A DNA stretch of 64,000 nt from Lingula anatina (taxonomy: Eukaryota > Animalia > Brachiopoda): contig CM120640.1 of NCBI GenBank assembly GCA_051362555.1, positions 24,414,225 through 24,478,224 on the forward strand, read 5' to 3'. Position 1 is the stretch's first letter, and the number at the start of each line of letters is the position of its first letter. This document shows, piece by piece, positions 3,961-64,000 of this stretch. The notes under the pieces were generated by a model. The model saw only the letters and a list, made by a program, of their open reading frames with translations, did not search any database and was not told where the DNA came from. A program made the translations under genes and the position numbers.

Positions 3961-4101
3961 ATTTATCAAAACAGTGAAAACTGATTTTGTTCTTTGTGTT
4001 CACATATTAGATCAAGAAAAAAATCACTTGGTATTAATTAGTCTTAACAAATATTTCTTTTAACTATTGTAATTTATCTTTTATTATGATTATTATTATT
4101 A

Positions 4102-29331: not shown

Positions 29332-29425
29332 TTATTGCAGGGGCGGATTGAGACCATCTTCTGGGCCTTCTGGAAGACGTTCAGATTTTAATGTCTGGAT
29401 GGGGTCGCTCATCATCTTCTTTGTC
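29332..29425 (-). other. Putative terminal exon of a minus-strand transcript that runs through the array
   Basis: It follows the last repeat intron (polypyrimidine-AAG acceptor), begins like a repeat exon and then becomes unique sequence. After a phase-2 junction it reads (R)TKKMMSDPIQTLKSERLPEGPEDGLNPPLQ*. Confidence 0.4.
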
Positions 29426-32400
29426 CTTTAAAAAGAAATGTAAAACAAGATTAGATTTTTTTCTATTTACTCATGTCACCACCCCCAAAAAATAAAATTT
29501 ACTAACCTTAGCTTGGATCCAAGAGTGAAGTCCATGTATGGGTGGGGTCGTTCATCATCTTCTTTGTCCTGTAAAAAGAAATGAAAAACAAGATTACCTT
29601 TTTTCAATTTACCCATGTCACCACCCCCAAAAAGTAAAATTTACTAACCTTAGCTTGGATCCGAGAGTGACTTCGATATCTGGGTGGGGTCGCTTATCAT
29701 CTTCCTTGTCCTGTAAAAAGAAATGAAAAACAAGATTAGATTTTTTCAATTTACCCATGTCACCACCCCCCAAAAAATAAAATTTACTAACCTTAGCTTG
29801 GATCCAAGAGTGACATCGTTGTCTGGGTGGGGTCCCTCATCATCTTCTTTGTCCTGTAAAAAGAAATAAAAAACAAGATTAGATTTTTTCAATTTACCCA
29901 TATCACCATCCCAAAAAAATAAAATTTACTAACCTTAGCTTAGATCTAAGAGTGAAGTCCATGTATGGGTGGGGTCGTTCATCATCTTCTTTGTCCTGTA
30001 AAAAGAAATGAAAAACAAGATTACCTTTTTTCAATTTACCCATGTCACCACCCCCAAAAAGTAAAATTTACTAACCTTAGCTTGGATCCAAAAGTGACTT
30101 CGATGTCTGGGTGGGGTCGCTCATCATCTTCCTTGTCCTGTAAAAAGAAATGAAAAACAAGATTAGATTTTTTCAATTTACCCATGTCACCACCCCCCAA
30201 AAAATAAAATTTACTAACCTTAGCTTGGATCCAAGAGTGACTTCGTTGTCTGGGTGGGGTCCCTCATCATCTTCTTTGTCCTGTAAAAAGAAATAAAAAA
30301 CTAGATTAGATTTCTTTAATTTACCCATATCACCATTCCATAAAAATAAAATTTACTAACCTTAGCTTGGTTCCAAGAGTGAAGTCCATGTCTGGGTGGG
30401 GTCCCTCATCATCTTCTTTGTCCTGTAAAAAGAAAAAAAAATTTTAGATTTTTTTGCAATTTACCCATCTTAAACCCCCCCCCCCCCCAAAAAAAAAATT
30501 TACTGACCTTAGCTTGGATTCAAGAGTGGCATCCATGTCTGGGTGGGGTCGATCATCATTTTCTTTGTCCTGTAAAAAGAAATGAAAAACAAGATTAGAT
30601 TTTTTCTATTTACTATCCCACCACCCCGAAAAAATAAAATTTACTAACCTAAGCTTGGATCCAGGAGTGAAGTCCATGTCCGAGTGGGGTCGCTCATCAT
30701 CTTCTTTGTCCTGTAAAAAAAAATGAAAAACAAGTTTAGATTTTTTTATTTTCCCATTCCACCACCCCCAAAAAATAAAATTTAATCACCTTAGCTTGGT
30801 TCCAAGTGTGAAGTCCATGTCCAGGTGGGGTCGCTCATCATCTTCCTGTAAAAAGAAATAAAAAACAAGATTAGATTTCTTTAATTTACCCATATCACCA
30901 TTCCATAAAAATAAAATTTACTAACCTTAGCTTAGTTCCAAGAGTGAAGTCCATGTCTGGGTGGGGCCCCTCATCATCTTCTTTGTCCTGTAAAAAGAAA
31001 AAAAAACATTAGATTTTTTTGCAATTTACCCATCTTAACCCCCCCCCCCCCCCCCCAAAAAAAAAAATTTACTGACCTTAGCTTGGATTCAAGAGTGACA
31101 TCCATATGTGGGTTGGGTCGTTCATCATCTTCTTTGTCCTGTAAAAAGAAATAAAAAACTAGATTAGATTTTTTTCAATTTACCAATCCCAACACCTCCA
31201 AAAAATAAAATTTACTTACCTTAGCTTAGAACTAAGAGTGACATCCATGTCTGGGTGGGGTCGCTCATCATCTTCTTTGTCCTGTAAAAAGAAATGAAAA
31301 ACAAGATTACCTTTTTTCAATTTACCCATGTCACCACCCCCCAAAAAATAAAATTTACTAACCTTAGCTTGGATCCAAGAGTGACTTCGTTGTCTGGGTG
31401 GGGTCCCTCATCATCTTCTTTGTCCTGTAAAAAGAAATAAAAAACTAGATTAGATTTCTTTAATTTACCCATATCACCATTCCATAAAAATAAAATTTAC
31501 TAACCTTAGCTTGGTTCCAAGAGTGAAGTCCATGTCTGGGTGGGGTCCCTCATCATCTTCTTTGTCCTGTAAAAAGAAAAAAAAATTTTAGATTTTTTTG
31601 CAATTTACCCATCTTAAACCCCCCCCCCCCCAAAAAAAAAAAATTTACTGACCTTAGCTTGGATTCAAGAGTGGCATCCATGTCTGGGTGGGGTCGATCA
31701 TCATTTTCTTTGTCCTGTAAAAAGAAATGAAAAACAAGATTAGATTTTTTCTATTTACTATCCCACCACCCCGAAAAAATAAAATTTACTAACCTAAGCT
31801 TGGATCCAGGAGTGAAGTCCATGTCCGAGTGGGGTCGCTCATCATCTTCTTTGTCCTGTAAAAAAAAATGAAAAACAAGTTTAGATTTTTTTATTTTCCC
31901 ATTCCACCACCCCCAAAAAATAAAATTTAATCACCTTAGCTTGGTTCCAAGTGTGAAGTCCATGTCCAGGTGGGGTCGCTCATCATCTTCCTGTAAAAAG
32001 AAATAAAAAACAAGATTAGATTTCTTTAATTTACCCATATCACCATTCCATAAAAATAAAATTTACTAACCTTAGCTTAGTTCCAAGAGTGAAGTCCATG
32101 TCTGGGTGGGGCCCCTCATCATCTTCTTTGTCCTGTAAAAAGAAAAAAAAACATTAGATTTTTTTGCAATTTACCCATCTTAACCCCCCCCCCCCCAAAA
32201 AAAAAAAATTTACTGACCTTAGCTTGGATTCAAGAGTGACATCCATATGTGGGTTGGGTCGTTCATCATCTTCTTTGTCCTGTAAAAAGAAATAAAAAAC
32301 TAGATTAGATTTTTTTCAATTTACCAATCCCAACACCTCCAAAAAATAAAATTTACTCACCTTAGCTTAGAACTAAGAGTGACATCCATGTCTGGGTGGG

Positions 32401-35400
32401 GTCGCTCATCATCTTCTTTGTCCTGTAAAAAGAAATGAAAAACAAGATTACCTTTTTTCAATTTACCCATATCACCATCGCAAAAAAATAAAATTTACTA
32501 ACCTTAGCTTAGATCTAAGAGTGACATCCATGTCCGGGTGGGGTCGTTCATCATCTTCTTTGTCCTGTAAAAAGTAATAAAAAACTAGATTAGATTTTTT
32601 TCAATTTACCAATCCCAACACCTCCAAAAAATAAAATTTACTCACCTTAGCTTAGATCTAAGAGTGACATCCATGTCTGGGTGGGGTCGCTCATCATTTT
32701 CTTTGTACTGTGAAAAGAAATAAAAAACAAGATTAGATTTTTTCAATTTACCCATATCACCATCCCAAAAAAATAAAATTTCCTAACCGTAGCTTGGATC
32801 CGAGAGTGACTTCTATGTTTGGGTGGGGTCGATCATCATTTTCTTTGTCCTGTAAAAGGAAATGAAAAACAAGATTAGATTTTTTCTATTTACTATCCCA
32901 CCACCCCAAAAAAATAAAATTTACTAACCTAAGCTTGGATCCAGGAGTGAAGTCCATGTCCGAGTGGGGTCGCTCATCATCTTCTTTGTCCTGTAAAAAA
33001 AAATGAAAAACAAGTTTAGATTTTTTTAATTTACCCATATCACCATTCCATAAAAATAAAATTTACTAACCTTAGCTTGGTTCCAAGAGTGAAGTCCATG
33101 TCTGGGTGGGGTCCCTCATCATCTTCTTTGTCCTGTAAAAAGAAAAAAAAAATTAGATTTTTTTGCAATTTACCCATCTTAAACCCCCCCCCCCCCCCCC
33201 CCCCATAAAAAAAAAAAAAATTTACTGACCTTAGCTTGGATTCAAGAGTGGCATCCATGTCTGGGTGGGGTCGCTCATCATCTGCTTTGTCCTGTAAAAA
33301 GAAATGAAAAACAAGATTAGATTTTTTCTATTTACTATCCCACCACCCCAAAAAAATAAAATTTACTAACCTAAGCTTGGATCCAGGAGTGAAGTCCATG
33401 TCCGAGTGGGGTCGCTCATCATCTTCTTTGTCCTGTAAAAAAAAATGAAAAACAAGTTTTGATTTTTTTTTTCCCATTTCACCACCCCCAAAAAATAAAA
33501 TTTACTCACCTTAGCTTGGTTCCAAGTGTGAAGTCCATGTCCAGGTGGGGTCGCTCATCATCTTCCTGTAAAAAGAAATAAAAAACAAGATTAGATTTCT
33601 TTAATTTACCCATATCACCATTCCATAAAAATAAAATTTACTAACCTTAGCTTGGTTCCAAGAGTGAAGTCCATGTCTGGGTGGGGTCCCTCATCATCTT
33701 CTTTGTCCTGTAAAAAGAAATAAAAAACTAGATTAGATTTTTTTTAATTTACCAAACCCCACACCTCCAAAAAATAAAATTTACTCACCTTAGCTTAGAT
33801 CTAAGAGTGACATCCATGTCTGGGTGGGGTCGCTCATCATCTGCTTTGTCCTGTAAAAAGAAATGAAAAACAAGATTAGATTTTTTCAATTTACCCATAT
33901 CACCATCCCAAAAAAATAAAATTTACTAACCGTAGCTTGGATCCAAGAGTGAAGTCCATGTCTGGGTGGGGTTGCTCATCATCTTCTTTGTCCTGTAAAA
34001 AGAAATAAAAAACAAGATTAGATTTTTTGCAATTTACATATCCTAACCTCTCCCCCCCCCCCCCCCCCAAAAAAAAAAAAAAAAATTTACTGACCTTAGC
34101 TTGGATCCGAGAGTGACTTTCTTTGTCTGGGTGGGGTCGATCATCATTTTCTTTGTCCTGTAAAAAGAAATGAAAAACAAGATTAGATTTTTTCTATTTA
34201 CTATCCCACCACCCCCCAAAAAAATAAAATTTACTAACCTAAGCTTGAATCCAGGAGTGAAGTCCATGTCCGGGTGGGGTCGCTCATCATCTTCTTTGTC
34301 CTGTAAAAAGAAATGAAAAACAAGATTAGATTTTTTCAATTTACCCATAATATCAACCCCCAAAAATACAATTTACTAACCTTAGCTTGGATCCAAGAGT
34401 GACTTCGATGTCTGGTTGGGGTCACTCATCATCTTCTTTGTCCTGTAAAAATAAATGAAAAACAAGATTAGATTTTTTCAATTTACCCATCCCACCACCC
34501 CAAAAAAATAAAATTTACTCACCTTAGCTTGGATCCAAGAGTGAAGTTCATGTCCGGGTGGGGTCGCTCATCATCTTCCTTGTCCTGTAAAAAGAAATGA
34601 AAAACAAAATTAGATTTTTTCAATTTACCCATGTCACCACCCCCCAAAAAATAAAATTTACTAACCTTAGCTTGGATCCAAGAGTGACTTTGTTGTCTAG
34701 GTGGGGTCGCTCATCATCTTCTTTGTCCTGTAAAAAGAAATAAAAAACAAGATTAGATTTTTTGCAATTGACCCATCTTAAACCCCCCCCACCCAAAAAA
34801 AAAATTTACTGACCTTAGCTTGGATCCAGAGTGATTTCGATGTCTGGGAGGGGGTCGCTCATCATTTTCTTTGTCCTGTAAAAAGAAATGAAAAACAAGA
34901 TTAGATTTTTTCAATTTACCCATCCCACCACCCCCCAAAAATAAAAATTATTAACCTTAGCTTGGATCCCGGAGTCAAGTCCATGTCCGGGTGGGGTCGC
35001 TCATCATCTTCTTTGTCCTATAAAAAGAAATGAAAACAAGATTAGTTCAATTTACCCATGTCACCGCCCCCCAAAAAATAAAATTTACTAACCTTAGCTT
35101 GGATCCAAGAGCGACTTCGTTGTCTGGGTGGGGTCGCTTATCATCTTCTTTGTCCTGTAAAAAGAAATGAAAAACAAGATTAGATTTTTTCAATATATCC
35201 ATCCCACCACCGCCAAAAAATAAAATTTACTAACCTTAGCTTTGATCCAAGAGTGAAGTCCATGTCCGGGTGGGGTCCCTCATCATCTTCTTTGTCCTGT
35301 AAAAAGAAATGAAAAACAAGATTAGATTTTTTGCAATTTACCCATCTTAAACCCCCCCCCCCCCAAAAAAAAAAAAATTTACTGACCTTAGCTTGGATCC

Positions 35401-38400: not shown

Positions 38401-41400
38401 TCCCTCATCATCTTCTTTGTCCTGTAAAAAGAAAAAAAAATATTAAATTTTTTTGCAATTTACCCATCTTAAACTCCCCCCCCCCCAAAAAAAAAAATTT
38501 ACTGACCTTAGCTTGGATTCAAGAGTGACTTCGATGTCTAGGTGGGGTCGCTCATCATCTCCTTTGTCCTGTAAAAAGAAATGAAAAATAAGATTAGATT
38601 TTTTCAATTTACCCATGTCCCATCCCAAAAAAATAAAATTTACTAACCTTAGCTTGAATCCAAGAGTGAAGTCCATATGTGGGTGGGGTCGCTCATCATC
38701 TTTGTCCTATAAAAAGAAATGAAAAACAAGATTAGATTTTTTCTATTTACTATCCCACCACCCCAAAAAAATAAAATTTACTAACCTTAGCTTGGTTCCA
38801 AGTGTGAAGTCCATGTCTGGGTGGGGTCCCTCATCATCTTCTTTGTCCTGTAAAAAGAAAAAAAAATATTAAATTTTTTTGCAATTTACCCATCTTAAAC
38901 TCCCCCCCCCCCAAAAAATAAAATTTACTCACCTTAGCTTAGATCTAAGAGTGACATCCATGTCTGGGTGGGGTCGCTCATCATCTTCTTTGTCCTGTAA
39001 AAAGAAATGAAAAACAAGATTAGATTTTTTCTATTTACTATCCCACCACCTCAAAAAAATGAAATTTACTAACCTAAGCTTGGATCCAGGAGTGAAGTCC
39101 ATGTCCGGGTGGGGTCGCTCATCATCTTCTTTGTCCTGTAAAAAGAAATGAAAAACAAGATTAGATTTTTTCAATATACCCATCCCACCACCGCCAAAAA
39201 ATAAAATTTACTAACCTGAGCTTAGATCCAAGAGTGAAGTCCATGTCCGAGTGAGGTCGCTCATCATCTTCTTTGTCCTGTAAAAAAAATGAAAAACAAG
39301 TTTAGATTTTTTAATTTTCCCATTCCACCACCCCCAAAAAATAAAATTTACTCACCTTAACTTGGTTCCAAGTGTGAAGTCCATGTCCAGGTGGGGTCGC
39401 TCATCATCTTCCTGTGAAAAGAAATGAAAAACAAGATTAGATTTTTTCTATTTACTATCCCACCACCCCAAAAAAATAAAATTTACTAACCTTAGCTTGG
39501 TTCCAAGTGTGAAGTCCATGTCTGGGTGGGGTCCCTCATCATCTTCTTTGTCCTGTAAAAAGAAAAAAAAATATTAAATTTTTTTGCAATTTACCCATCT
39601 TAAACTCCCCCCCCCCCCAAAAAAAAAAATTTACTGACCTTAGCTTGGATTCAAGAGTGACTTCGATGTCTAGGTGGGGTCGCTCATCATCTCCTTTGTC
39701 CTGTAAAAAGAAATGAAAAATAAGATTAGATTTTTTCAATTTACCCATGTCCCATCCCAAAAAAATAAAATTTACTAACCTTAGCTTGAATCCAAGAGTG
39801 AAGTCCATATGTGGGTGGGGTCGCTCATCATCTTTGTCCTATAAAAAGAAATAAAAAACAAGATTAGATTTTTTTCAATTTACCAATCCCAACACCTCCA
39901 AAAAATAAAATTTACTCACCTTAGCTTAGATCTAAGAGTGACATCCATGTCTGGGTGGGGTCGCTCATCATCTTCTTTGTCCTGTAAAAAGAAATGAAAA
40001 ACAAGATAAGATTTTTTCAATATACCCATATCACCATCCCAAAAAAATAAAATTTACTAACCTTAGGTTGGATTCAAGAGTGACTTCGATGTCTGGGTGG
40101 GGTCGCTCATCATCTTCTTTGTCCTGTAAAAAGAAATGAAAAACAAGATTAGATTTTTTCTATTTACTATCCCACCACCTCAAAAAAATGAAATTTACTA
40201 ACCTAAGCTTGGATCCAGGAGTGAAGTCCATGTCCGGGTGGGGTCGCTCATCATCTTCTTTGTCCTGTAAAAAGAAATGAAAAACAAGATTAGATTTTTT
40301 CAATTTACCCATAACATCAACCCCCAAAAATAAAATTTACTAACCTTAGCTTGGATCCAAGAGTGACTTCGATGTATGGGTGGGGTCGCTCATCATCTTC
40401 TTTGTCCTGTAAAAAGAAATGAAAAACAAGATTAGATTTTTACCCATAACATCAATCCCCAAAAATAAAATTTACTGACCTTTCCTTAGATCCAAGTGTG
40501 ACTTCGATGTCTGGGTGGGATCGCTCATCATCTTCCTTGTCCTGATAAAAGAAATGAAAAACAAGATTTTTTCAATTGACCCATCTAACCCCCCTCCCCC
40601 TCCCCACCCCCCCTCCCCCCCCCCAAAAAAAATAATAATTTACTGACCTTTGCTTGGATCCAGAGTGACGTCGATGTCCGGGTGGGGTCGCTCATCATCT
40701 TCTTTCTCCTGTAAAAAGAAATGAAAAACAATATTAGATTTTTACAATTTACCCATAACATCAACACCCATAAAATAAAATTTACTAACCTTAGCTTGGA
40801 TCCAAGAGTGACTTCGATGTCCGGGTAGGGTCGCTCATCATCTTCTTTGTCCTGTAAAAAGAAATGAAAAACAAGATTAGATTTTTTCAATTTACCCATC
40901 CCATCACCTCAAAAAATAAAATTAACTAACCTTAGCTTGGATCCAAGAGTGTAGTCCATGTCCGGTTGGGGTCGCTCATCATCTTCTTTGTCCTGTAAAA
41001 AGAAATGAAAAACAAGATTAGATTTTTTCAATATACCAATCCCACCACCGCCAAAAAATAAAATTAACTAACCTTAGCTTGGATCCAAGAGTGTAGTCCA
41101 TGACCGGGTGGGGTCGCTCATCATCTTCTTTGTCCTGTAAAAAGAAATGAAAAACAAGATTAGATTTTTTTATTTTCCCATTCCACCCCCCCCCCCCCAA
41201 AAAAAAAAAAAAATTTACTCACCTTAGTTAGATCCAAGAGTGAAATCCATATGTGGGTGGGGTCGCTCATCATCTTCTTTGTCCTGTAAAAAGAAATGAA
41301 AAACAAGATTAGATTTTTTCAATATACCCATCCCACCACCGCCAAAAAATAAAATTTACTAACCTTAGCTTGGATCCAAAAGTGAAGTCCATGTCCGGGT

Positions 41401-43614
41401 GAGGTCGCTCATCATCTTCTTTGTCCTGTAAGAAAAAATGAAAAACAAGATTAGATTTTTTCAATATACCCATCCCACCACCGCCAAAAAATAAAATTTA
41501 CTAACCTTAGTTGGATCCAAGAGTGAGGTCCATGTCTGGGTGGGGTCGCTCATCATCTTCTTTGTCCTGTAAAAAGAAATGAAAAACAAGATTAGATTTT
41601 TTCTATTTACTATCCCACCACCCCAAAAAAATGAAATTTACTAACCTAAGCTTGGATCCAGGAGTGAAGTCCATGTCCGGGTGGGGTCGCTCATCATCTT
41701 CTTTGTCCTGTAAAAAGAAATGAAAAACAAGATTAGATTTTTTTATTTTCCCATTCCACCCCCCCCCCCAAAAAAATAAAATTTACTCACCTTAGTTAGA
41801 TCCAAGAGTGAAATCCATATGTGGGTGGGGTCGCTCATCATCTTCTTTGTCCTGTAAAAAGAAATGAAAAACAAGATTAGATTTTTTCAATATACCCATC
41901 CCACCACCGCCAAAAAATAAAATTTACTAACCTTGGCTTGGATCCAAAAGTGAAGTCCATGTCCGGGTGAGGTCGCTCATCATCTTCTTTGTCCTGTAAA
42001 AAAAAATGAAAAACAAGATTAGATTTTTTCAATATACCCATCCCACCACCGCCAAAAAATAAAATTTACTAACCTTAGTTGGATCCAAGAGTGAGGTCCA
42101 TGTCTGGGTGGGGTCGCTCATCATCTTCTTTGTCCTGTAAAAAGAAATGAAAAACAAGATTAGATTTTTTCTATTTACTATCCCACCACCCCAAAAAAAT
42201 GAAATTTACTAACCTAAGCTTGGATCCAGGAGTGAAGTCCATGTCCGGGTGGGGTCGCTCATCATCTTCTTTGTCCTGTAAAAAGAAATGAAAAACAAGA
42301 TTAGATTTTTTTATTTTCCCATTCCACCCTCCCCCCCCCAAAAAAAATAAAATTTACTCACCTTAGTTAGATCCAAGAGTGAAATCCATATGTGGGTGGG
42401 GTCGCTCATCATCTTCTTTGTCCTGTAAAAAGAAATGAAAATAAGATTAGATTTTTTCAATATACCCATCCCACCACCGCCAAAAAATAAAATTTACTAA
42501 CCTTAGCTTGGATCCAAGAGTGAAGTCCATGTCCGGGTGAGATCGCTCATCATCTTCTTTGTCCTGTAAAAAGAAATGAAAAACAAGATTAGATTTTTTC
42601 AATATACCCATCCCACCACCGCCAAAAAATAAAATTTACTAACCTTAGTTGGATCCAAGAGTGACTTCGATGTATGGGTGGGGTCGCTCATCATCTTCTT
42701 TGTCCTGTAAAAAGAAATGAAAAACAAGATTAGATTTTTTCAATTTACCCTTAACATCAACCCCCAAAAATAAAATTTACTAACCTTAGCTTGGATCCAA
42801 GAGTGAAGTCCATGTCCGGGTGGGGTCGCTCATCATCTTCTTTGTCCTGTAAAAAGAAATGAAAAACAAGATTAGATTTTTTCAATTTACCCATCCCATC
42901 ACCTCAATAAAATAAAATTTACTCACCTTAGCTTGGATCCAAGAGTGACATCCATATCAGGGTGAGGTCGCTCAGCATCTTCTTTGTACTGTAAAAAGAA
43001 ATGAAAAACAACATTAGATTTTTTCAATTTACCCATGTCACAATCCCCCCCAAAAAAATTTACTAACCTTAGCTTGGATCCAAGAGTGAAGTCCATGTCC
43101 GGTTGGGGTCGTTCATCATCTTCTTTGTCCTGTAAAAAGAAATGAAAAACAAGATTAGATTTTTTCAATATACCCATCCCACCACCGCCAAAAAATAAAA
43201 TTTACTAACCTTAGCTTGGATCCAAGAGTGAAGTCCATGTCCGGGTGAGGTCGCTCATCATCTTCTTTGTCCTGTAAAAAGAAATGAAAAACAAGATTAG
43301 ATTTTTTTATTTTCCCATTCCACCACCCCCAAAAAATAAAATTTACTCACCTTAGTTAGATCCAAGAGTGAAGTCCATATGTGGGTGGGGTCGCTCATCA
43401 TCTTCTTTGTCCTGTAAAAAGAAATAAAAAATTAAATTAGATTTTTTTCAATTTACCAATCCCAACACCTCCAAAAAATAAAATTTACTCACCTTAGTTT
43501 AGATCTAAGAGTGACATCCATGTCTGGGTGGGGTTGCTCATCATCTTCTTTGTCCTGTAAAAAGAAATAAAAAACAAGATTAGATTTTTTGCAATTTACA
43601 TATCCTAACCTCTC

Positions 43615-43645
<31 letters not shown>

Positions 43646-46600: not shown

Positions 46601-49600
46601 TTTTTATTTTCCCATTCCACCACCCCCAAAAAATAAAATTTACTCACCTTAACTTGGTTCCAAGTGTGAAGTCCATGTCCAGGTGGGGTCGCTCATCATC
46701 TTCCTGTGAAAAGAAATGAAAAACAAGATTAGATTTTTTCTATTTACTATCCCACCACCCCAAAAAAATAAAATTTACTAACCTTAGCTTGGTTCCAAGT
46801 GTGAAGTCCATGTCTGGGTGGGGTCCCTCATCATCTTCTTTGTCCTGTAAAAAGAAAAAAAAATATTAAATTTTTTTGCAATTTAACCATCTTAAACTCC
46901 CCCCCCCCCCCAAAAAAAAAAAATTTACTGACCTTAGCTTGGATTCAAGAGTGACTTCGATGTCTAGGTGGGGTCGCTCATCATCTCCTTTGTCCTGTAA
47001 AAAGAAATGAAAAATAAGATTAGATTTTTTCAATTTACCCATGTCCCATCCCAAAAAAATAAAATTTACTAACCTTAGCTTGAATCCAAGAGTGAAGTCC
47101 ATATGTGGGTGGGGTCGCTCATCATCTTTGTCCTATAAAAAGAAATAAAAAACAAGATTAGATTTTTTTCAATTTACCAATCCCAACACCTCCAAAAAAT
47201 AAAATTTACTCACCTTAGCTTAGATCTAAGAGTGACATCCATGTCTGGGTGGGGTCGCTCATCATCTTCTTTGTCCTGTAAAAAGAAATGAAAAACAAGA
47301 TAAGATTTTTTCAATATACCCATATCACCATCCCAAAAAAATAAAATTTACTAACCTTAGGTTGGATTCAAGAGTGACTTCGATGTCTGGGTGGGGTCGC
47401 TCATCATCTTCTTTGTCCTGTAAAAAGAAATGAAAAACAAGATTAGATTTTTTCTATTTACTATCCCACCACCTCAAAAAAATGAAATTTACTAACCTAA
47501 GCTTGGATCCAGGAGTGAAGTCCATGTCCGGGTGGGGTCGCTCATCATCTTCTTTGTCCTGTAAAAAGAAATGAAAAACAAGATTAGATTTTTTCAATTT
47601 ACCCATAACATCAACCCCCAAAAATAAAATTTACTAACCTTAGCTTGGATCCAAGAGTGACTTCGATGTATGGGTGGGGTCGCTCATCATCTTCTTTGTC
47701 CTGTAAAAAGAAATGAAAAACAAGATTAGATTTTTACCCATAACATCAATCCCCAAAAATAAAATTTACTGACCTTTCCTTAGATCCAAGTGTGACTTCG
47801 ATGTCTGGGTGGGATCGCTCATCATCTTCCTTGTCCTGATAAAAGAAATGAAAAACAAGATTTTTTCAATTGACCCATCTAACCCCCCTCCCCCTCCCCA
47901 CCCCCCCTCCCCCCCCCAAAAAAAAATAATAATTTACTGACCTTTGCTTGGATCCAGAGTGACGTCGATGTCCGGGTGGGGTTGCTCATCATCTTCTTTC
48001 TCCTGTAAAAAGAAATGAAAAACAATATTAGATTTTTACAATTTACCCATAACATCAACACCCATAAAATAAAATTTACTAACCTTAGCTTGGATCCAAG
48101 AGTGACTTCGATGTCCGGGTAGGGTCGCTCATCATCTTCTTTGTCCTGTAAAAAGAAATGAAAAACAAGATTAGATTTTTTCAATTTACCCATCCCATCA
48201 CCTCAAAAAATAAAATTAACTAACCTTAGCTTGGATCCAAGAGTGTAGTCCATGTCCGGTTGGGGTCGCTCATCATCTTCTTTGTCCTGTAAAAAGAAAT
48301 GAAAAACAAGATTAGATTTTTTCAATATACCAATCCCACCACCGCCAAAAAATAAAATTAACTAACCTTAGCTTGGATCCAAGAGTGTAGTCCATGACCG
48401 GGTGGGGTCGCTCATCATCTTCTTTGTCCTGTAAAAAGAAATGAAAAACAAGATTAGATTTTTTCAATATACCCATCCCACCACCGCCAAAAAATAAAAT
48501 TTACTAACCTTAGCTTGGATCCAAAAGTGAAGTCCATGTCCGGGTGAGGTCGCTCATCATCTTCTTTGTCCTGTAAGAAAAAATGAAAAACAAGATTAGA
48601 TTTTTTCAATATACCCATCCCACCACCGCCAAAAAATAAAATTTACTAACCTTAGTTGGATCCAAGAGTGAGGTCCATGTCTGGGTGGGGTCGCTCATCA
48701 TCTTCTTTGTCCTGTAAAAAGAAATGAAAAACAAGATTAGATTTTTTCTATTTACTATCCCACCACCCCAAAAAAATGAAATTTACTAACCTAAGCTTGG
48801 ATCCAGGAGTGAAGTCCATGTCCGGGTGGGGTCGCTCATCATCTTCTTTGTCCTGTAAAAAGAAATGAAAAACAAGATTAGATTTTTTTATTTTCCCATT
48901 CCACCCCCCCCCCCCCCAAAAAAAATAAAATTTACTCACCTTAGTTAGATCCAAGAGTGAAATCCATATGTGGGTGGGGTCGCTCATCATCTTCTTTGTC
49001 CTGTAAAAAGAAATGAAAAACAAGATTAGATTTTTTCAATATACCCATCCCACCACCGCCAAAAAATAAAATTTACTAACCTTGGCTTGGATCCAAAAGT
49101 GAAGTCCATGTCCGGGTGAGGTCGCTCATCATCTTCTTTGTCCTGTAAAAAAATATGAAAAACAAGATTAGATTTTTTCAATATACCCATCCCACCACCG
49201 CCAAAAAATAAAATTTACTAACCTTAGTTGGATCCAAGAGTGAGGTCCATGTCTGGGTGGGGTCGCTCATCATCTTCTTTGTCCTGTAAAAAGAAATGAA
49301 AAACAAGATTAGATTTTTTCTATTTACTATCCCACCACCCCAAAAAAATGAAATTTACTAACCTAAGCTTGGATCCAGGAGTGAAGTCCATGTCCGGGTG
49401 GGGTCGCTCATCATCTTCTTTGTCCTGTAAAAAGAAATGAAAAACAAGATTAGATTTTTTTATTTTCCCATTCCACCCTCCCCCCCCCAAAAAAAATAAA
49501 ATTTACTCACCTTAGTTAGATCCAAGAGTGAAATCCATATGTGGGTGGGGTCGCTCATCATCTTCTTTGTCCTGTAAAAAGAAATGAAAATAAGATTAGA

Positions 49601-52600
49601 TTTTTTCAATATACCCATCCCACCACCGCCAAAAAATAAAATTTACTAACCTTAGCTTGGATCCAAGAGTGAAGTCCATGTCCGGGTGAGGTCGCTCATC
49701 ATCTTCTTTGTCCTGTAAAAAGAAATGAAAAACAAGATTAGATTTTTTCAATATACCCATCCCACCACCGCCAAAAAATAAAATTTACTAACCTTAGTTG
49801 GATCCAAGAGTGAGGTCCATGTCTGGGTGGGGTCGCTCATCATCTTCTTTGTCCTGTAAAAAGAAATGAAAAACAAGATTAGATTTTTTCAATTTACCCA
49901 TAACATCAACCCCCAAAAATAAAATTTACTAACCTTAGCTTGGATCCAAGAGTGACATCGATGTATGGGTGGGGTCGCTCATCATCTTCTTTGTCCTGTA
50001 AAAAGAAATGAAAAACAAGATTAGATTTTTTCAATTTACCCTTAACATCAACCCCCAAAAATAAAATTTACTAACCTTAGCTTGGATCCAAGAGTGAAGT
50101 CCATGTCCGGGTGGGGTCGCTCATCATCTTCTTTGTCCTGTAAAAAAAAATGAAAAACAAGATTAGATTTTTTCAATTTACCCATCCCATCACCTCAATA
50201 AAATAAAATTTACTCACCTTAGCTTGGATCCAAGAGTGACATCCATATCAGGGTGAGGTCGCTCAGCATCTTCTTTGTACTGTAAAAAGAAATGAAAAAC
50301 AACATTAGATTTTTTCAATTTACCCATGTCACAATCCCCCCCCCAAAAAATTTACTAACCTTAGCTTGGATCCAAGAGTGAAGTCCATGTCCGGTTGGGG
50401 TCGTTCATCATCTTCTTTGTCCTGTAAAAAGAAATGAAAAACAAGATTAGATTTTTTCAATATACCCATCCCACCACCGCCAAAAAATAAAATTTACTAA
50501 CCTTAGCTTGGATCCAAGAGTGAAGTCCATGTCCGGGTGAGGTCGCTCATCATCTTCTTTGTCCTGTAAAAAGAAATGAAAAACAAGATTAGATTTTTTT
50601 ATTTTCCCATTCCACCACCCCCAAAAAATAAAATTTACTCACCTTAGTTAGATCCAAGAGTGAAGTCCATATGTGGGTGGGGTCGCTCATCATCTTCTTT
50701 GTCCTGTAAAAAGAAATAAAAAATTAAATTAGATTTTTTTCAATTTACCAATCCCAACACCTCCAAAAAATAAAATTTACTCACCTTAGTTTAGATCTAA
50801 GAGTGACATCCATGTCTGGGTGGGGTCGCTCATCATCTTCTTTGTCCTGTAAAAAGAAATGAAAAACAAGATTAGATTTTTTCTATTTACTATCCCACCA
50901 CCCCAAAAAAATAAAATTTACTAACCTAAGCTTGGATCCAGGAGTGAAGTCCATGTCCGGGTGGGGTCGCTCATCATCTTCTTTGTCCTGTAAAAAGAAA
51001 TGAAAAACAAGATTAGATTTTTACAATTTACCCATAACATCAACACCCATAAAATAAAATTTACTAACCTTAGCTTGGATCCAAGAGTGACTTCGATGTC
51101 CGGGTAGGGTCGCTCATCATCTTCTTTGTCCTGTAAAAAGAAATGAAAAACAAGATTAGATTTTTTCAATTTACCCATCCCATCACCTCAAAAAATAAAA
51201 TTAACTAACCTTAGCTTGGATCCAAGAGTGAAGTCCATGTCCGGTTGGGGTCGCTCATCATCTTCTTTGTCCTGTAAAAAGAAATGAAAAACAAGATTAG
51301 ATTTTTTCAATATACCAATCCCACCACCGCCAAAAAATAAAATTAACTAACCTTAGCTTGGATCCAAGAGTGTAGTCCATGACCGGGTGGGGTCGCTCAT
51401 CATCTTCTTTGTCCTGTAAAAAGAAATGAAAAACAAGATTAATTTTTTTATTTTCCCATTCCACCCCCCCCCCCAAAAAAAATAAAATTTACTCACCTTA
51501 GTTAGATCCAAGAGTGAAATCCATATGTGGGTGGGGTCGCTCATCATCTTCTTTGTCCTGTAAAAAGAAATGAAAATAAGATTAGATTTTTTCAATATAC
51601 CCATCCCACCACCGCCAAAAAATAAAATTTACTAACCTTAGCTTGGATCCAAGAGTGAAGTCCATGTCCGGGTGAGGTCGCTCATCATCTTCTTTGTCCT
51701 GTAAAAAGAAATGAAAAACAAGATTAGATTTTTTCAATATACCCATCCCACCACCGCCAAAAAATAAAATTTACTAACCTTAGTTGGATCCAAGAGTGAG
51801 GTCCATGTCTGGGTGGGGTCGCTCATCATCTTCTTTGTCCTGTAAAAAGAAATGAAAAACAAGATTAGATTTTTTCAATTTACCCATAACATCAACCCCC
51901 AAAAATAAAATTTACTAACCTTAGCTTGGATCCAAGAGTGACTTCGATGTATGGGTGGGGTCGCTCATCATCTTCTTTGTCCTGTAAAAAGAAATGAAAA
52001 ACAAGATTAGATTTTTTCAATTTACCCTTAACATCAACCCCCAAAAATAAAATTTACTAACCTTAGCTTGGATCCAAGAGTGAAGTCCATGTCCGGGTGG
52101 GGTCGCTCATCATCTTCTTTGTCCTGTAAAAAGAAATGAAAAACAAGATTAGATTTTTTCAATTTACCCATCCCATCACCTCAATAAAATAAAATTTACT
52201 CACCTTAGCTTGGATCCAAGAGTGACATCCATATCAGGGTGAGGTCGCTCAGCATCTTCTTTGTACTGTAAAAAGAAATGAAAAACAACATTAGATTTTT
52301 TCAATTTACCCATGTCACAATCCCCCCCCAAAAAATTTACTAACCTTAGCTTGGATCCAAGAGTGAAGTCCATGTCCGGTTGGGGTCGTTCATCATCTTC
52401 TTTGTCCTGTAAAAAGAAATGAAAAACAAGATTAGATTTTTTCAATATACCCATCCCACCACGGCCAAAAAATAAAATTTACTAACCTTAGCTTGGATCC
52501 AAGAGTGAAGTCCATGTCCGGGTGAGGTCGCTCATCATCTTCTTTGTCCTGTAAAAAGAAATGAAAAACAAGATTAGATTTTTTTATTTTCCCATTCCAC

Positions 52601-55600: not shown

Positions 55601-58600
55601 AAAAAAAAAATTTACTCACCTTAGTTAGATCCAAGAGTGAAATCCATGTGGGTGGGGTCGCTCATCATCTTCTTTGTCCTGTAAAAAGAAATGAAAAACA
55701 AGATTAGATTTTTTCAATATACCCATCCCACCACCGCCAAAAAATAAAATTTACTAACCTTAGCTTGGATCCAAGAGTGAAGTCCATGTCCGGGTGGGGT
55801 CGCTCATCATCTTCTTTGTCCTCTAAAAAGAAATGAAAAACAAGATTAGATTTTTTCAATTTACCCATCCCATCACCTCAATAAAATAAAATTTACTCAC
55901 CTTAGCTTGGATCCAAGAGTGACATCCATATCAGGGTGAGGTCGCTCAGCATCTTCTTTGTACTGTAAAAAGAAATGAAAAACAACATTAGATTTTTTCA
56001 ATTTACCCATGTCACCATCCCCCCCCAAAAAATTTACTAACCTTAGCTTGGATCCAAGAGTGAAGTCCATGTCCGGTTGGGGTTGCTCATCATCTTCTTT
56101 GTCCTGTAAAAAGAAATGAAAAACAAGATTAGATTTTTTCAATATACCCATCCCACCACCGCCAAAAAATAAAATTTACTAACCTTAGCTTGGATCCAAG
56201 AGTGAAGTCCATGTCCGGGTGAGGTCGCTCATCATATTCTTTGTCCTGTAAAAAGAAATGAAAAACAAGATTAGATTTTTTTATTTTCCCATTCCACCAC
56301 CCCCAAAAAATAAAATTTACTCACCTTAGTTAGATCCAAGAGTGAAGTCCATATGTGGGTGGGGTCGCTCATCATCTTCTTTGTCCTGTAAAAAGAAATA
56401 AAAAATTAAATTAGATTTTTTTCAATTTACCAATCCCACCACCCCAAAAAAATAAAATTTACTAACCTAAGCTTGGATCCAGGAGTGAAGTCCATGTCCG
56501 GGTGGGGTCGCTCATCATCTTCTTTGTCCTGTAAAAAGAAATGAAAAACAAGATTAGATTTTTACAATTTACCCATAACATCAACATCCATAAAATAAAA
56601 TGTACTAACCTTAGCTTGGATCCAAGAGTGAAGTCCATGTCCGGTTGGGGTCGCTCATCATCTTCTTTGTCCTGTAAAAAGAAATGAAAAACAAGATTAG
56701 ATTTTTTCAATATACCAATCCCACCACCGCCAAAAAATTAAATTAACTAACCTTAGCTTGGATCCAAGAATGTAGTCCATGACCGGGTGGGGTCGCTCAT
56801 CATCTTCTTTGTCCTGTAAAAAGAAATGAAAAACAAGATTAGATTTTTTTATTTTCCCATTCCACCCCCCCCCCCCCCCCAAAAATAAAATTTACTCACC
56901 TTAGTTAGATCCAAGAGTGAAATCCATATGTGGGTGGGGTCGCTCATCATCTTCTTTGTCCTGTAAAAAGAAATGAAAAACAAGATTAGATTTTTTCAAT
57001 TTACCCATAACATCAACCCCCAAAAATAAAATTTACTAACCTTAGCTTGGATCCAGGAGTGAAGTCCATGTCCGGGTGGGGTCGCTCATCATCTTCTTTG
57101 TCCTGTAAAAAGAAATGAAAAACAAGATTAGATTTTTTCAATTTACCCATAACATCAACCCCCAAAAATAAAATTTACTAACCTTAGCTTGGATCCAAGA
57201 GTGACTTCGATGTATGGGTGGGGTCGCTCATCATCTTCTTTGTCCTGTAAAAAGAAATGAAAAACAAGATTAGATTTTTTCAATTTACCCTTAACATCAA
57301 CCCCCAAAAATAAAATTTACTAACCTTAGCTTGGATCCAAGAGTGAAGTCCATGTCCGGGTGGGGTCGCTCATCATCTTCTTTGTCCTGTAAAAAGAAAT
57401 GAAAAACAAGATTAGATTTTTTCAATTTACCCATCCCATCACCTCAATAAAATAAAATTTACTCACCTTAGCTTGGATCCAAGAGTGACATCCATATCAG
57501 GGTGAGGTCGCTCAGCATCTTCTTTGTACTGTAAAAAGAAATGAAAAACAACATTAGATTTTTTCAATTTACCCATGTCACCATCCCCCCCAAAAAAATT
57601 TACTAACCTTAGCTTGGATCCAAGAGTGAAGTCCATGTCCGGTTGGGGTCGCTCATCATCTTCTTTGTCCTGTAAAAAGAAATGAAAAACAAGATTAGAT
57701 TTTTTCAATATACCCATCCCACCACCGCCAAAAAATAAAATTTACTAACCTTAGCTTGGATCCAAGAGTGAAGTCCATGTCCGGGTGAGGTCGCTCATCA
57801 TCTTCTTTGTCCTGTAAAAAGAAATGAAAAACAAGATTAGATTTTTTTATTTTCCCATTCCACCACCCCCAAAAAATAAAATTTACTCACCTTAGTTAGA
57901 TCCAAGAGTGAAGTCCATATGTGGGTGGGGTCGCTCATCATCTTCTTTGTCCTGTAAAAAGAAATAAAAAATTAAATTAGATTTTTTTCAATTTACCAAT
58001 CCCACCACCCCAAAAAAATAAAATTTACTAACCTAAGCTTGGATCCAGGAGTGAAGTCCATGTCCGGGTGGGGTCGCTCATCATCTTCTTTGTCCTGTAA
58101 AAAGAAATGAAAAACAAGATTAGATTTTTACAATTTACCCATAACATCAACACCCATAAAATAAAATTTACTAACCTTAGCTTGGATCCAAGAGTGACTT
58201 CGATGTCCGGGTAGGGTCGCTCATCATCTTCTTTGTCCTGTAAAAAGAAATGAAAAACAAGATTAGATTTTTTCAATTTACCCATCCCATCACCTCAAAA
58301 AATAAAATTAACTAACCTTAGCTTGGATCCAAGAGTGAAGTCCATGTCCGGTTGGGGTCGCTCATCATCTTCTTTGTCCTGTAAAAAGAAATGAAAAACA
58401 AGATTAGATTTTTTCAATATACCAATCCCACCACCGCCAAAAAATAAAATTAACTAACCTTAGCTTGGATCCAAGAGTGTAGTCCATGACCGGGTGGGGT
58501 CGCTCATCATCTTCTTTGTCCTGTAAAAAGAAATGAAAAACAAGATTAGATTTTTTTATTTTCCCATTCCACCCCCCTCCCCCCCCAAAAAAAAAATAAT

Positions 58601-61600
58601 AAAATTTACTCACCTTAGTTAGATCCAAGAGTGAAATCCATGTGGGTGGGGTCGCTCATCATCTTCTTTGTCCTGTAAAAAGAAATGAAAAACAAGATTA
58701 GATTTTTTCAATATACCCATCCCACCACCGCCAAAAAATAAAATTTACTAACCTTAGTTGGATCCAAGAGTGAGGTCCATGCCTGGGTGGGGTCGCTCAT
58801 CATCTTCTTTGTCCTGTAAAAAGAAATGAAAAACAAGATTAGATTTTTTCTATTTACTATCCAACCACCCCAAAAAAATGAAATTTACTAACCTAAGCTT
58901 GGATCCAGGAGTGAAGTCCATGTCCGGGTGGGGTCGCTCATCATCTTCTTTGTCCTGTAAAAAGAAATGAAAAACAAGATTAGATTTTTTCAATTTACCC
59001 ATAACATCAACCCCCAAAAATAAAATTTACTAACCTTAGCTTGGATCCAAGAGTGACTTCGATGTCTGTGTGGGGTCGCTCATCATCTTCTTTGTCCTGA
59101 AAAAAGAAATGAAAAACAAGATTAGATTTTTTCAATTTACCCTTAACATCAACCCCCAAAAATAAAATTTACTAACCTTAGCTTGGATCCAAGAGTGAAG
59201 TCCATGTCCGGGTGGGGTCGCTCATCATCTTCTTTGTCCTCTAAAAAGAAATGAAAAACAAGATTAGATTTTTTCAATTTACCCATCCCATCACCTCAAT
59301 AAAATAAAATTTACTCACCTTAGCTTGGATCCAAGAGTGACATCCATATCAGGGTGAGGTCGCTCAGCATCTTCTTTGTACTGTAAAAAGAAATGAAAAA
59401 CAACATTAGATTTTTTCAATTTACCCATGTCACCATCCCCCCCAAAAAAATTTACTAACCTTAGCTTGGATCCAAGAGTGAAGTCCATGTCCGGTTGGGG
59501 TCGCTCATCATCTTCTTTGTCCTGTAAAAAGAAATGAAAAACAAGATTAGATTTTTTCAATATACCCATCCCACCACCGCCAAAAAATAAAATTTACTAA
59601 CCTTAGCTTGGATCCAAGAGTGAAGTCCATGTCCGGGTGAGGTCGCTCATCATCTTTTTTGTCCTGTAAAAAGAAATGAAAAACAAGATTAGATTTTTTT
59701 ATTTTCCAATTCCACCACCCCCAAAAAATAAAATTTACTCACCTTAGTTAGATCCAAGAGTGAAGTCCATATGTGGGTGGGGTCGCTCATCATCTTCTTT
59801 GTCCTGTAAAAAGAAATAAAAAATTAAATTAGATTTTTTTCAATTTACCAATCCCACCACCCCAAAAAAATAAAATTTACTAACCTAAGCTTGGATCCAG
59901 GAGTGAAGTCCATGTCCGGGTGGGGTCGCTCATCATCTTCTTTGTCCTGTAAAAAGAAATGAAAAACAAGATTAGATTTTTACAATTTACCCATAACATC
60001 AACACCCATAAAATAAAATGTACTAACCTTAGCTTGGATCCAAGAGTGAAGTCCATGTCCGGTTGGGGTCGCTCATCATCTTCTTTGTCCTGTAAAAAGA
60101 AATGAAAAACAAGATTAGATTTTTTCAATATACCAATCCCACCACCGTCAAAAAATTAAATTAACTAACCTAAGCTTGGATCCAAGAGTGTAGTCCATGA
60201 CCGGGTGGGGTCGCTCATCATCTTCTTTGTCCTGTAAAAAGAAATGAAAAACAAGATTAGATTTTTTTATTTTCCCATTCCACCCCCCCCCCCCCCCCCC
60301 AAAAAAATAAAATTTCACTCACCTTAGTTAGATCCAAGAGTGAAATCCATATGTGGGTGGGGTCGCTCATCATCTTCTTTGTCCTGTAAAAAGAAATGAA
60401 AAACAAGATTAGATTTTTTCAATTTACCCATAACATCAACCCCCAAAAATAAAATTTACTAACCTTAGCTTGGATCCAGGAGTGAAGTCCATGTCCGGGT
60501 GGGGTCGCTCATCATCTTCTTTGTCCTGTAAAAAGAAATGAAAAACAAGATTAGATTTTTTCAATTTACCCATAACATCAACCCCCAAAAATAAAATTTA
60601 CTAACCTTAGCTTGGATCCAAGAGTGAAGTCCATGTCCGGGTGGGGTCGCTCATCATCTTCTTTGTCCTGTAAAAAGAAATGAAAAACAAGATTAGATTT
60701 TTTCAATTTACCCATCCCATCACCTCAATAAAATAAAATTTACTCACCTTAGCTTGGATCCAAGAGTGACATCCATATCAGGGTGAGGTCGCTCAGCATC
60801 TTCTTTGTACTGTAAAAAGAAATGAAAAACAACATTAGATTTTTTCAATTTACCCATGTCACCATCCCCCCCCCAAAAATTTACTAACCTTAGCTTGGAT
60901 CCAAGAGTGACATCCATATCAGGGTGAGGTCGCTCAGCATCTTCTTTGTACTGAAAAAAGAAATGAAAAACAAGATTAGATTTTTTCAATATACCCATCC
61001 CACCACCTCCAAAAAATAAAATTTACTCACCTTAGCTTGGATACAAGAGTGAAGTCCATGTCCGAGTGGGGTCGCTCATCATCTCCTTTGTCCTGTAAAA
61101 AGAAATGAAAAACAACATTAGTTTTTTCAATTTACCCATGTCCCATCCCAAAAAAATAAAATTTACTAACCTTAGCTTGGATCCAAGAGTGAAGTCCATG
61201 TCCGGGTGGGGTCACTCATCATCTTCTTTGTCCTGTAAAAAGAAATGAAAAACAAGATTAGATTTTTTCAATTTACCCATTCCACCACCCCCAAAAAATA
61301 AAATTTACTCACCTTAGTTAGATCCAAGAGTGAAGTCCATGTCCGGGTGGGGTCGCTCATCATCTTCTTTGTCCTGTAAAAAGAAATGAAAAACAAGATT
61401 AGATTTTTTCAATATACCCATCCTACCACCGCCAAAAAAAAAATTTACTCACATTAACTTGGATCCAAGAGTGAAGTCCATGTGCGGGTGGGGTCGCTCA
61501 TCATCTTCTTTGTCCTGAAAAAAGAAATGAAAAACAAGATTAGATTTTTTTATTTTCCCATTCCACCCCCCCCCCCCCCCCCCCCAAAAAAATAAAATTT

Positions 61601-64000
61601 CACTCACCTTAGTTAGATCCAAGAGTGAAATCCATATGTGGGTGGGGTCGCTCATCATCTTCTTTGTCCTGTAAAAAGAAATGAAAAACAAGATTAGATT
61701 TTTTCAATTTACCCATAACATCAACCCCCAAAAATAAAATTTACTAACCTTAGCTTGGATCCAGGAGTGAAGTCCATGTCCGGGTGGGGTCGCTCATCAT
61801 CTTCTTTGTCCTGTAAAAAGAAATGAAAAACAAGATTAGATTTTTTCAATTTACCCATAACATCAACCCCCAAAAATAAAATTTACTAACCTTAGCTTGG
61901 ATCCAAGAGTGAAGTCCATGTCCGGGTGGGGTCGCTCATCATCTTCTTTGTCCTGTAAAAAGAAATGAAAAACAAGATTAGATTTTTTCAATTTACCCAT
62001 CCCATCACCTCAATAAAATAAAATTTACTCACCTTAGCTTGGATCCAAGAGTGACATCCATATCAGGGTGAGGTCGCTCAGCATCTTCTTTGTACTGTAA
62101 AAAGAAATGAAAAACAACATTAGATTTTTTCAATTTACCCATGTCACCATCCCCCCCCCAAAAATTTACTAACCTTAGCTTGGATCCAAGAGTGACATCC
62201 ATATCAGGGTGAGGTCGCTCAGCATCTTCTTTGTACTGAAAAAAGAAATGAAAAACAAGATTAGATTTTTTCAATATACCCATCCCACCACCTCCAAAAA
62301 ATAAAATTTACTCACCTTAGCTTGGATACAAGAGTGAAGTCCATGTCCGAGTGGGGTCGCTCATCATCTCCTTTGTCCTGTAAAAAGAAATGAAAAACAA
62401 CATTAGTTTTTTCAATTTACCCATGTCCCATCCCAAAAAAATAAAATTTACTAACCTTAGCTTGGATCCAAGAGTGAAGTCCATGTCCGGGTGGGGTCAC
62501 TCATCATCTTCTTTGTCCTGTAAAAAGAAATGAAAAACAAGATTAGATTTTTTCAATTTACCCATTCCACCACCCCCAAAAAATAAAATTTACTCACCTT
62601 AGTTAGATCCAAGAGTGAAGTCCATGTCCGGGTGGGGTCGCTCATCATCTTCTTTGTCCTGTAAAAAGAAATGAAAAACAAGATTAGATTTTTTCAATAT
62701 ACCCATCCTACCACCGCCAAAAAAAAAATTTACTCACATTAACTTGGATCCAAGAGTGAAGTCCATGTGCGGGTGGGGTCGCTCATCATCTTCTTTGTCC
62801 TGAAAAAAGAAATGAAAAACAAGATTAGATTTTTTCAATATACCCATCCCACCACCTCCAAAAAATAAAATTTACTCACCTTAGCTTGGATCAAAGAGTG
62901 ACATCCATGTCCGGGTGGGGTTGCTCAGCATCTTCTTTGTACTGTAAAAAGATATAAAAAACAAGATTAGATTTTTTCATTTTACCCATGTCACCATCCC
63001 AAAAAAATAAAATTTACTAACCTTAGCTTGGATCCAAGAGTGAAGTCCATGTCCGGGTGGGGTCACTCATCATCTTCTTTGTCCTGTAAAAAGAAATGAA
63101 AAACAACATTAGTTTTTTCAATTTACCCATTCCACCACCCCCAAAAAATAAAATTTACTCACCTCAGTTAGATCCAAGAGTGAAGTCCATGTCCGGGTGG
63201 GGTCGCTCATCATCTTCTTTGTCCTGTAAAAAGAAATGAAAAACAAGATTAGATTTTTTCAATTTACCCATAACATCAACCCCCAAAAATAAAATTTACT
63301 AACCTTAGCTTGGATCCAAGAGTGAAGTCCATGTCCGGGTGGGGTCGCTCATCATCTTCTTTGTCCTGTAAAAAGAAATGAAAAACAAGATTAGATTTTT
63401 TCAATTTACCCATCCCATCACCTCAATAAAATAAAATTTACTCACCTTAGCTTGGATCCAAGAGTGACATCCATATCAGGGTGAGGTCGCTCAGCATCTT
63501 CTTTGTACTGTAAAAAGAAATGAAAAACAACATTAGATTTTTTCAATTTACCCATGTCACCATCCCCCCCCCAAAAATTTACTAACCTTAGCTTGGATCC
63601 AAGAGTGACATCCATATCAGGGTGAGGTCGCTCAGCATCTTCTTTGTACTGAAAAAAGAAATGAAAAACAAGATTAGATTTTTTCAATATACCCATCCCA
63701 CCACCTCCAAAAAATAAAATTTACTCACCTTAGCTTGGATACAAGAGTGAAGTCCATGTCCGAGTGGGGTCGCTCATCATCTCCTTTGTCCTGTAAAAAG
63801 AAATGAAAAACAACATTAGTTTTTTCAATTTACCCATGTCCCATCCCAAAAAAATAAAATTTACTAACCTTAGCTTGGATCCAAGAGTGAAGTCCATGTC
63901 CGGGTGGGGTCACTCATCATCTTCTTTGTCCTGTAAAAAGAAATGAAAAACAAGATTAGATTTTTTCAATTTACCCATTCCACCACCCCCAAAAAATAAA
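29391..64000 (-). repeat. Tandem array of about 240 units of ~142 bp (62-nt exon-like + ~80-nt intron-like), with higher-order repeats; runs off the window end
   Basis: Minus-strand consensus: cag|GACAAAGAAGATGATGAGCGACCCCACCCGGACATGGACTTCACTCTTGGATCCAAGCTAAG|gttagtaaattttattttttgg(G-rich variable)gggtaaattgaaaaaatctaatcttgtttttcatttctttttacag. Three units span 427 bp (29538 to 29965). Confidence 0.97.

Follow-up and report, generated by a model that had tools for sequence, protein, structure and literature searches.

A tandem array of exon-intron units in Lingula anatina that probably belongs to a spliced non-coding transcript

A stretch of 64,000 nucleotides from the brachiopod Lingula anatina (contig CM120640.1, positions 24,414,225 to 24,478,224; hereafter the window) was analyzed. 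It contains a tandem array whose 142-bp unit, read on the minus strand, is a complete exon and a complete intron. The array is probably a spliced, non-coding, repeated-exon transcript and part of a long RNA polymerase II transcript. All 241 whole units of the array have intact splice signals. Transcription of the repeat family is from the minus strand, and exon-exon joints occur in its poly(A) RNA. Exon-intron structure is not usually expected of satellite DNA, and what normally maintains splice sites is a reading frame or an RNA encoded in the intron. In this array, the five core splice bases are all retained in 241 copies with a mean difference of 12%, neither a frame nor an intronic RNA is apparent, and the family is spliced in vivo.

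Unit structure and conservation of the splice signals

Tandem Repeats Finder reported a single array with a period of 142 that continues up to the window end and spans about 35 kb (Table 1). The units were parsed on the minus strand from each donor to the next donor, using anchors that permitted mismatches at the GT and AG letters. The parse gave 241 whole units. An incomplete unit lies at the edge of the window, and the opposite end of the array has a final intron followed by a truncated exon. Exon and intron repeat together, head to tail, in at least 242 copies. The intron is 73-106 nt long with a mode of 80, and the exon is 62 nt long in 190 units, 61 in 34, 56 in eight, 59 in seven and 63 in two. 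Every unit has one donor and one acceptor, a ratio of 1:1. The donors are GTTAGT (149 units), GTGAGT (61), GTCAGT (22), GTTAAT (3), GTAAGT (2), GTGATT (2), GTATGT (1) and GTTAGG (1), and the acceptors are TACAG (213), TATAG (9), TTCAG (7), CACAG (6), TAGAG (4) and ATCAG (2). Mean pairwise identity between units is 88%, with similar values for exon and intron, and block duplications are seen at lags of 8, 16 and 51 units. Variation is greatest in mid-intron: of the 710 indel bases, 540 fall in intron positions 11-51, two are among its first ten bases and the exon has 111.

The donor GT, the acceptor AG and the branch A of the CTAAT motif are each intact in 241/241 units, while just 24 of the 142 columns are invariant across the array. 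The base-matched probability of this result is 3e-4 for the four GT and AG bases, 8e-5 when the branch A is added, and 3e-4 for the five sites when the hypervariable block is excluded. Only three of the 33 G's in the unit are invariant and two of the three are splice G's. Likewise, both splice dinucleotides belong to the seven, out of 141, that no unit has lost (P 0.002). Elsewhere in the unit there are five GT and six AG dinucleotides, none of which is constant: they are intact in 142-237 of the 241 units. The look-alike splice sites on the plus strand vary too, and are intact in 219 and 228.

As a discount for copying among units of shared history, alleles were also counted once each (171 distinct alleles). 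No distinct allele was observed at the five core sites, where 5.8-6.3 were expected (p 0.002-0.003), and no common allele was observed at the ten-site splice consensus, where 6.8-7.8 were expected.

The original prediction, made from the letters of the sequence, had described a satellite of exon and spliceable intron units in which GT and AG persist while neighboring bases vary and in which most length variation lies in the middle of the intron. All of this agrees with the parse, which found eight donor and six acceptor variants, and conservation is higher at GT, AG and the branch A than elsewhere in the unit. It had also read the exon as 62 nt with shorter variants, which is correct except that the deletion given as about 7 nt is actually 6 nt.

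The exon carries a purine-rich motif at its positions 9-17 (for example, window positions 29552-29560), which holds six of the ten invariant exon columns. Inside this motif, an ATG at exon positions 11-13 is invariant in 241/241 units. The motif may act as a splicing enhancer, or its ATG may be a start codon.

RNA of the repeat family

The RNA evidence comes from poly(A) RNA-seq runs whose records bear this species label. Six of nine runs were aligned (X1, X2, X3, X4, X7 and X9). The alignment to the wider region was dominated by dispersed repeats, and X4 and X9 were uninformative on array joints. Joints were judged in X1, X2 and X3, which belong to one study, and in X7, which belongs to another. 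The target was a 230-base stretch holding one whole unit, and at a likeness of 80 these runs gave 107, 103, 82 and 1357 reads, many of which lay on the adjoining dispersed repeat. Strand was calibrated in X1, where the plus-strand exons of a SPICE-like gene in the window were covered by first-mate-minus reads only (22x vs 0). First-mate-plus reads of X1 therefore represent minus-strand RNA. The strand of X2 and X3 was taken from the study and library type that they have in common with X1, and X7 looks unstranded.

In X1, the reference exon had a depth of 27-31 on the mate that represents minus-strand RNA and 0 on the other, and intron depth was 7-14. Three types of joint were seen. The first skips 81 bases and has CT..AC ends, which are GT..AG on the minus strand; it was found in six X1 reads from two starts and four X3 reads from four starts. 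The second goes back by 62 bases, with sides of 65, 32 and 62 letters, and was found in one X1 read, two X2 reads and four X3 reads. The third, in four X1 reads, joins 50 and 12 letters and corresponds to a 62-nt exon with a diverged 3' end. The junction reads that the original prediction had proposed to look for are thus present on the predicted strand, with a total of 21 exon-exon joint observations at the predicted sites in three of the four runs, all from minus-strand RNA; one read may count twice in this total.

RNA of the repeat family is, thus, spliced exon to exon at the predicted bases. The joints are known from RNA-seq, for which an intronless genomic copy would be an alternative source. 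The joint that goes back by 62 bases fits either tandem splicing or a one-exon circle, and the poly(A) selection and the small size would favor the linear form. A splice reading of the plus strand (TACTAAC..AG) was rejected because its sites vary, the joints are found in minus-strand RNA and exon reads from the plus strand are absent in X1.

Loose read ends over 29400-29570 include sister exons that have diverged yet are joined exactly at the splice sites, as well as diverged introns in which a branch-like motif is retained. An older, more varied part of the repeat family lies outside the window.

Interpretation of the array

In the explanation that we prefer, a long non-coding transcript would run from right to left from a promoter beyond position 64,000, and each 142-bp unit would supply an 80-nt intron and a 62-nt exon. 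The unit may have arisen when a whole short intron and its flanking exon sequence were duplicated in tandem, and it may have been amplified by unequal exchange in blocks of 8, 16 and 51 units. Purifying selection would then remove units that lose a core splice signal. The purpose of the locus might be a spliced multimer of purine-rich 62-nt exons or a dense loading of spliceosomes on nascent RNA, and the exons, like the RRD exons of Firre, might form a repeated scaffold to which proteins bind. A more specific version of this proposal is tentative, and we consider it possible. It holds that a single polymerase II gene has at least 242 near-identical exons and is built as a satellite. Each monomer would be a minimal working exon-intron unit under selection for spliceability without a frame or intronic cargo, and the product would be either splicing itself or a spliced 62-nt multimer, loading hundreds of spliceosomes and exon-junction complexes on one RNA. 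With all of the 240+ exons on one transcript, the exon number would be comparable to that of the most exon-rich genes known, for which titin is the comparison. The array would also be a natural and highly replicated test of which positions of a short intron and exon are selected for splicing alone, and it would illustrate how a fragment of a gene can turn into a satellite while remaining spliceable.

Several observations weigh against a transcript of this array. All 21 joint observations come from a single study, and X7 shows a flat depth of about 10 and no joints. The joints that skip 81 bases have just 25 letters on their short side. Expression is low, at about 30x on one exon in X1 summed over all copies; this sum is of the same order as the depth of one exon of the single-copy SPICE-like gene, and it amounts to less than 1/200 of that per copy. 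Many reads are unspliced (in X3, an exon depth of 10-16 vs an intron depth of 5-12), and X2 and X3 carry 4-8x of opposite-strand reads. None of the reads of X1-X3 is 99% alike to the aligned reference unit. The exon alleles 47G and 53A occur in 9-10 of 27-28 X1 reads but in 0/241 units, and 23T occurs in 15 of 29 X1 reads but in only two of the 241 units. Since these RNA alleles are rare or absent in the array, part of the RNA comes from copies outside the window, and family copies lie beyond it in another haplotype, in the upstream part of the array or at another locus. No RNA read was tied to this particular array copy. The low-coordinate end of the array is truncated at a dispersed repeat, where 1066 X7 reads have a loose end at 29394. 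A proper last exon was not found there, and RNA depth is zero at 28951-29163 in three of the four runs. Finally, rare alleles (those in three units or fewer) show no avoidance of the ten-site consensus (6 observed vs 4.7-4.9 expected) and avoid the five core sites only at p 0.07 (0 vs 2.6 expected). The pattern of allele frequencies fits weak ongoing selection and also fits a constraint inherited from a source gene. The sequence past 29391 had been considered as a true last exon with a stop, and this was rejected because it is the dispersed repeat.

Many of these points would also be expected of a satellite born from a gene, the main competing explanation, which we regard as rather unlikely. 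In this case, a 'mirage' that copied a whole intron would have been amplified from a few dozen diverged functional exon-intron units of a source gene, with inherited splice sites and an array that has no function of its own. Splicing would occur only on low-level read-through, or the spliced reads would come from the source locus. Such an origin would account for the common, presumably old, alleles avoiding the splice consensus while the rare, young ones avoid only its core, and weakly. It also agrees with the grouping of the 241 units into 38 clusters at six or fewer differences, with RNA reads that hold alleles and whole exon variants absent from the array, and with the low depth, the partial splicing and the truncated end. 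However, the rare alleles at the five core sites are also at zero, and weak purifying selection yields the same allele-frequency pattern. Moreover, the diverged sister exons in the RNA retain both the 62-nt length and the junction, and the mirages described so far leave normal messenger RNA (mRNA) splicing undisturbed (PMC3087553), whereas here repeat joins repeat. The original prediction had left the choice between a many-exon non-coding transcript and a gene-born satellite. The evidence leans to the transcript but, as no read can be tied to this copy of the array, leaves the satellite some probability.

We consider it improbable that a protein-coding gene starts beyond the window and has the array as its tail. 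Such a tail would be either a giant spliced 3' untranslated region, where the protein ends in the first one or two repeat exons, or the source of a variable repeat protein through exon skipping (62+61 pairs or single cassettes). In-silico joining of the 241 exons gave 14,841 nt with 249-284 stops per frame, and no array-wide reading frame was found in this splice. The lengths 62, 61, 59 and 56 are not multiples of three, and a length of 63 nt is found in just 2/241. The claim of the original prediction that consecutive splicing reaches a TAA by the second exon is true of 62+62 pairs, but the common 61-nt variant takes out the usual stop and restores the frame, such that a 62+61 pair makes 41 codons. 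In favor of a coding tail, the first frame is open in most 62-nt exons and the second in all 34 of the 61-nt exons, while several 62-nt exons have stops in the first frame. Two blocks of alternating 62- and 61-nt exons give stop-free stretches of 260 and 296 amino acids (Table 1), and of 1000 shuffles of exon order, three reached 260 and none reached 296. Nevertheless, the blocks are related through a duplication of about 51 units (7.3 kb), the two long stretches both go back to a single local dimer expansion, and stop-free stretches of at least 80 amino acids number 21 vs 20.5 in the shuffles. The ratio of nonsynonymous to synonymous polymorphism (pN/pS) is 0.67 in two sense frames, but one antisense frame has the same value and none of the six frames is significant against the mutation spectrum (p ~0.06 in both sense frames). 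In the RNA, seven reads join 62-nt exons directly. Protein searches with the array open reading frame and with exon peptides found no relative.

These searches gave one weak protein match, P0121 (E 3.6e-5), which is mainly to translated intron. P0121 (JGI/IMG and NCBI) is a predicted protein with three 38-amino-acid repeats followed by unique sequence, and it resembles the translation of a repeated intron end from another organism. A separate candidate, one micro open reading frame per exon, was not adopted because a stop follows the first ATG in just 172 of the 241 exons, mostly after 16 codons.

It is very unlikely that the array is a host for a small RNA encoded in the intron (a mirtron, small nucleolar RNA [snoRNA] or stable lariat) whose exons are discarded, in the style of SNORD115/116 and Bsr. 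The layout, repeated exons and introns in a non-coding transcript, is that of known hosts (PMC3413130), and such a role would account for splice-site selection without a frame. An Rfam scan of 29300-33000 (about 25 units), which covers described RNA families, found no match near the gathering score. Its best match, mir-4922, covers the 3' part of the intron, but at 24.7 bits it is far under the 82-bit cut-off (E 0.36). Seven folds of exon, intron and unit showed no fold signal (z-scores of -0.06 to 0.84, with the introns at 0.27-0.38). The intron is also most variable in its middle, and at 80 nt it offers scant space between its splice signals for a snoRNA. The exon contains a box C-like motif, which was discarded as it had no box D partner and no Rfam support.

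The proposal that the introns shield the array from HUSH-type silencing was rejected as well, because short introns protect little and splicing is not required for protection (PMC8770142). The poly(A) signals AATAAA and ATTAAA are found in 0/241 exons; 25 introns contain AATAAA and 10 contain ATTAAA. Pattern scans of metagenome contigs gave no matches.

Neighboring features and comparison with known systems

The features of the window are collected in Table 1. A search with a SPICE exon among longer proteins gave no match. Within the SPICE-like gene, between 10675 and 19932, there are five copies of an element with an intact open reading frame of about 103 amino acids, which are 81-91% alike. 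Four are on the minus strand, at 10757, 13019, 15384 and 17451, the first three being about 2.3 kb apart, and one is inverted at 19467. No Pfam family was found for the three copies scanned, and the best ESM Atlas score was an uninformative 0.77. These elements look like a nested small multigene family. Dispersed repeats lie at 26821-28950, including a 161-bp tandem at 26931-27225, and at 29256-29394. They reach up to about 1,800x in poly(A) RNA and are strongly one-stranded in X1.

Table 1. Coordinates of the array, its parts and the neighboring genes in the window
Feature	Position	Strand	Remarks
End of multiple-PDZ gene	1-2737	+	in the flank of the array
Small gene	about 3900-7400	-	coiled-coil by eye
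SPICE-domain gene	about 7700-24200	+	in the flank of the array
Dispersed repeat at low-coordinate array end	29256..29394	.	high-depth joint 28647->29256; X7 depth ~600x, stopping at 29394; 77% match to 28651-28728
Tandem array of exon+intron units	29391..64000, continues past window end	-	period 142; 241 whole units
Truncated terminal exon	29391..29425	-	first 35 nt of unit exon; abuts dispersed repeat with ~4 shared bases (29391-29394); loose read ends 29389-29396
Last intron, 81 nt	29426..29506	-	GTTAGT ... CTAAT ... TAAAG; skip-81 joint CT..AC, 10 reads; X1 depth 7-14
Last complete 62-nt exon	29507..29568	-	reference for RNA read alignment; X1 depth 27-31 on minus-RNA mate, 0 on other; joints going back by 62
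Sister block, alternating 62/61-nt exons, units 146-160	40931..43067 (low end approximate)	-	296-amino-acid stop-free stretch in silico
Block of alternating 62/61-nt exons, units 96-108	48367..50217	-	260 amino acids stop-free if consecutively spliced, in silico only
First complete 62-nt exon in window	63869..63930	-	acceptor TACAG

A literature search that included a satellite review (PMC5615363) found no such array described in the texts within its reach, which left out most subscription papers. The closest systems each share part of its organization. Coding exon arrays, such as exon 2 of Schistosoma SmPoMuc, with 27 bp (PMC2576457), and DMBT, NBPF and LPA (PMC2588610), have units of about 1 kb or more and encode repeat domains. 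As in SmPoMuc, DMBT, NBPF and LPA, the tandem unit of our array is an exon with flanking intron and the units are consecutively spliced. In contrast to these coding arrays, its 62-nt exon breaks the frame.

The chicken 'lumpy loop' repeat LL2R is a single-locus satellite with about 360 copies of 446 bp, which are about 86% alike and transcribed in a strand-specific manner (bioRxiv 10.64898/2026.03.19.712899). It is rich in splice signals and poor in poly(A) signals, recruits splicing factors and has a threefold excess of donors, and it was proposed to be unspliced (bioRxiv 10.64898/2026.03.19.712899). The Lingula array shares with it the satellite organization, the strand-specific transcription, the many splice signals and the scarcity of poly(A) signals. 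It differs in having balanced donors and acceptors and in being seen to splice, though part of its RNA is unspliced.

The amphioxus mirage minisatellites of Adh3 and the globins BflGb6/9 arose by tandem duplication of sequence with splice signals, have globin units of 150-160 bp and undergo concerted evolution (PMC3087553). Our array resembles them in unit size and in the minisatellite-like duplication of gene sequence with splice signals. In the mirages, one boundary is copied, the units are few (3 and 6 in BflGb6) and AG/GT are not kept in all of them (PMC3087553). The Lingula unit, in contrast, spans a whole intron with both boundaries and keeps donor, branch and acceptor in 241/241. Furthermore, repeat-to-repeat joints, from this array or from a related locus, are seen in three of the four runs; a host-gene exon, as the mirage model has it, was not found in the window.

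Copies of the RRD repeat make up seven of the 13 exons of human Firre and 11 of the 23 exons of mouse Firre, and this repeat binds hnRNPU and keeps the RNA nuclear (PMC4820808). Like Firre, the array is non-coding and most of its exons would be copies of one repeat with no coding frame. The RRD copies are about ten, local and dispersed, split by unrelated sequence, whereas the array repeats exon and intron head to tail in some twenty times more copies. The likeness concerns the repeat-exon layout, and protein binding and nuclear retention are features of Firre.

The SNORD115/SNORD116 host transcripts of Snurf-Snrpn and rat Bsr/RBII-36 are huge, non-coding and composed of tandemly repeated spliced exons and introns (PMC3413130). 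The SNORD115/116 hosts carry a box C/D snoRNA in each intron, whereas the array has an intron of about 80 nt, with no Rfam family or fold in the roughly 25 units scanned, in a unit of 142 bp. The array is also not a mammalian imprinted locus, having flanking PDZ and SPICE genes and a guanine-cytosine content of 33%. What it shares with the SNORD115/116 and Bsr hosts (the SNHG14 type) is the overall plan of tandemly repeated exon-intron units that are non-coding and spliced.

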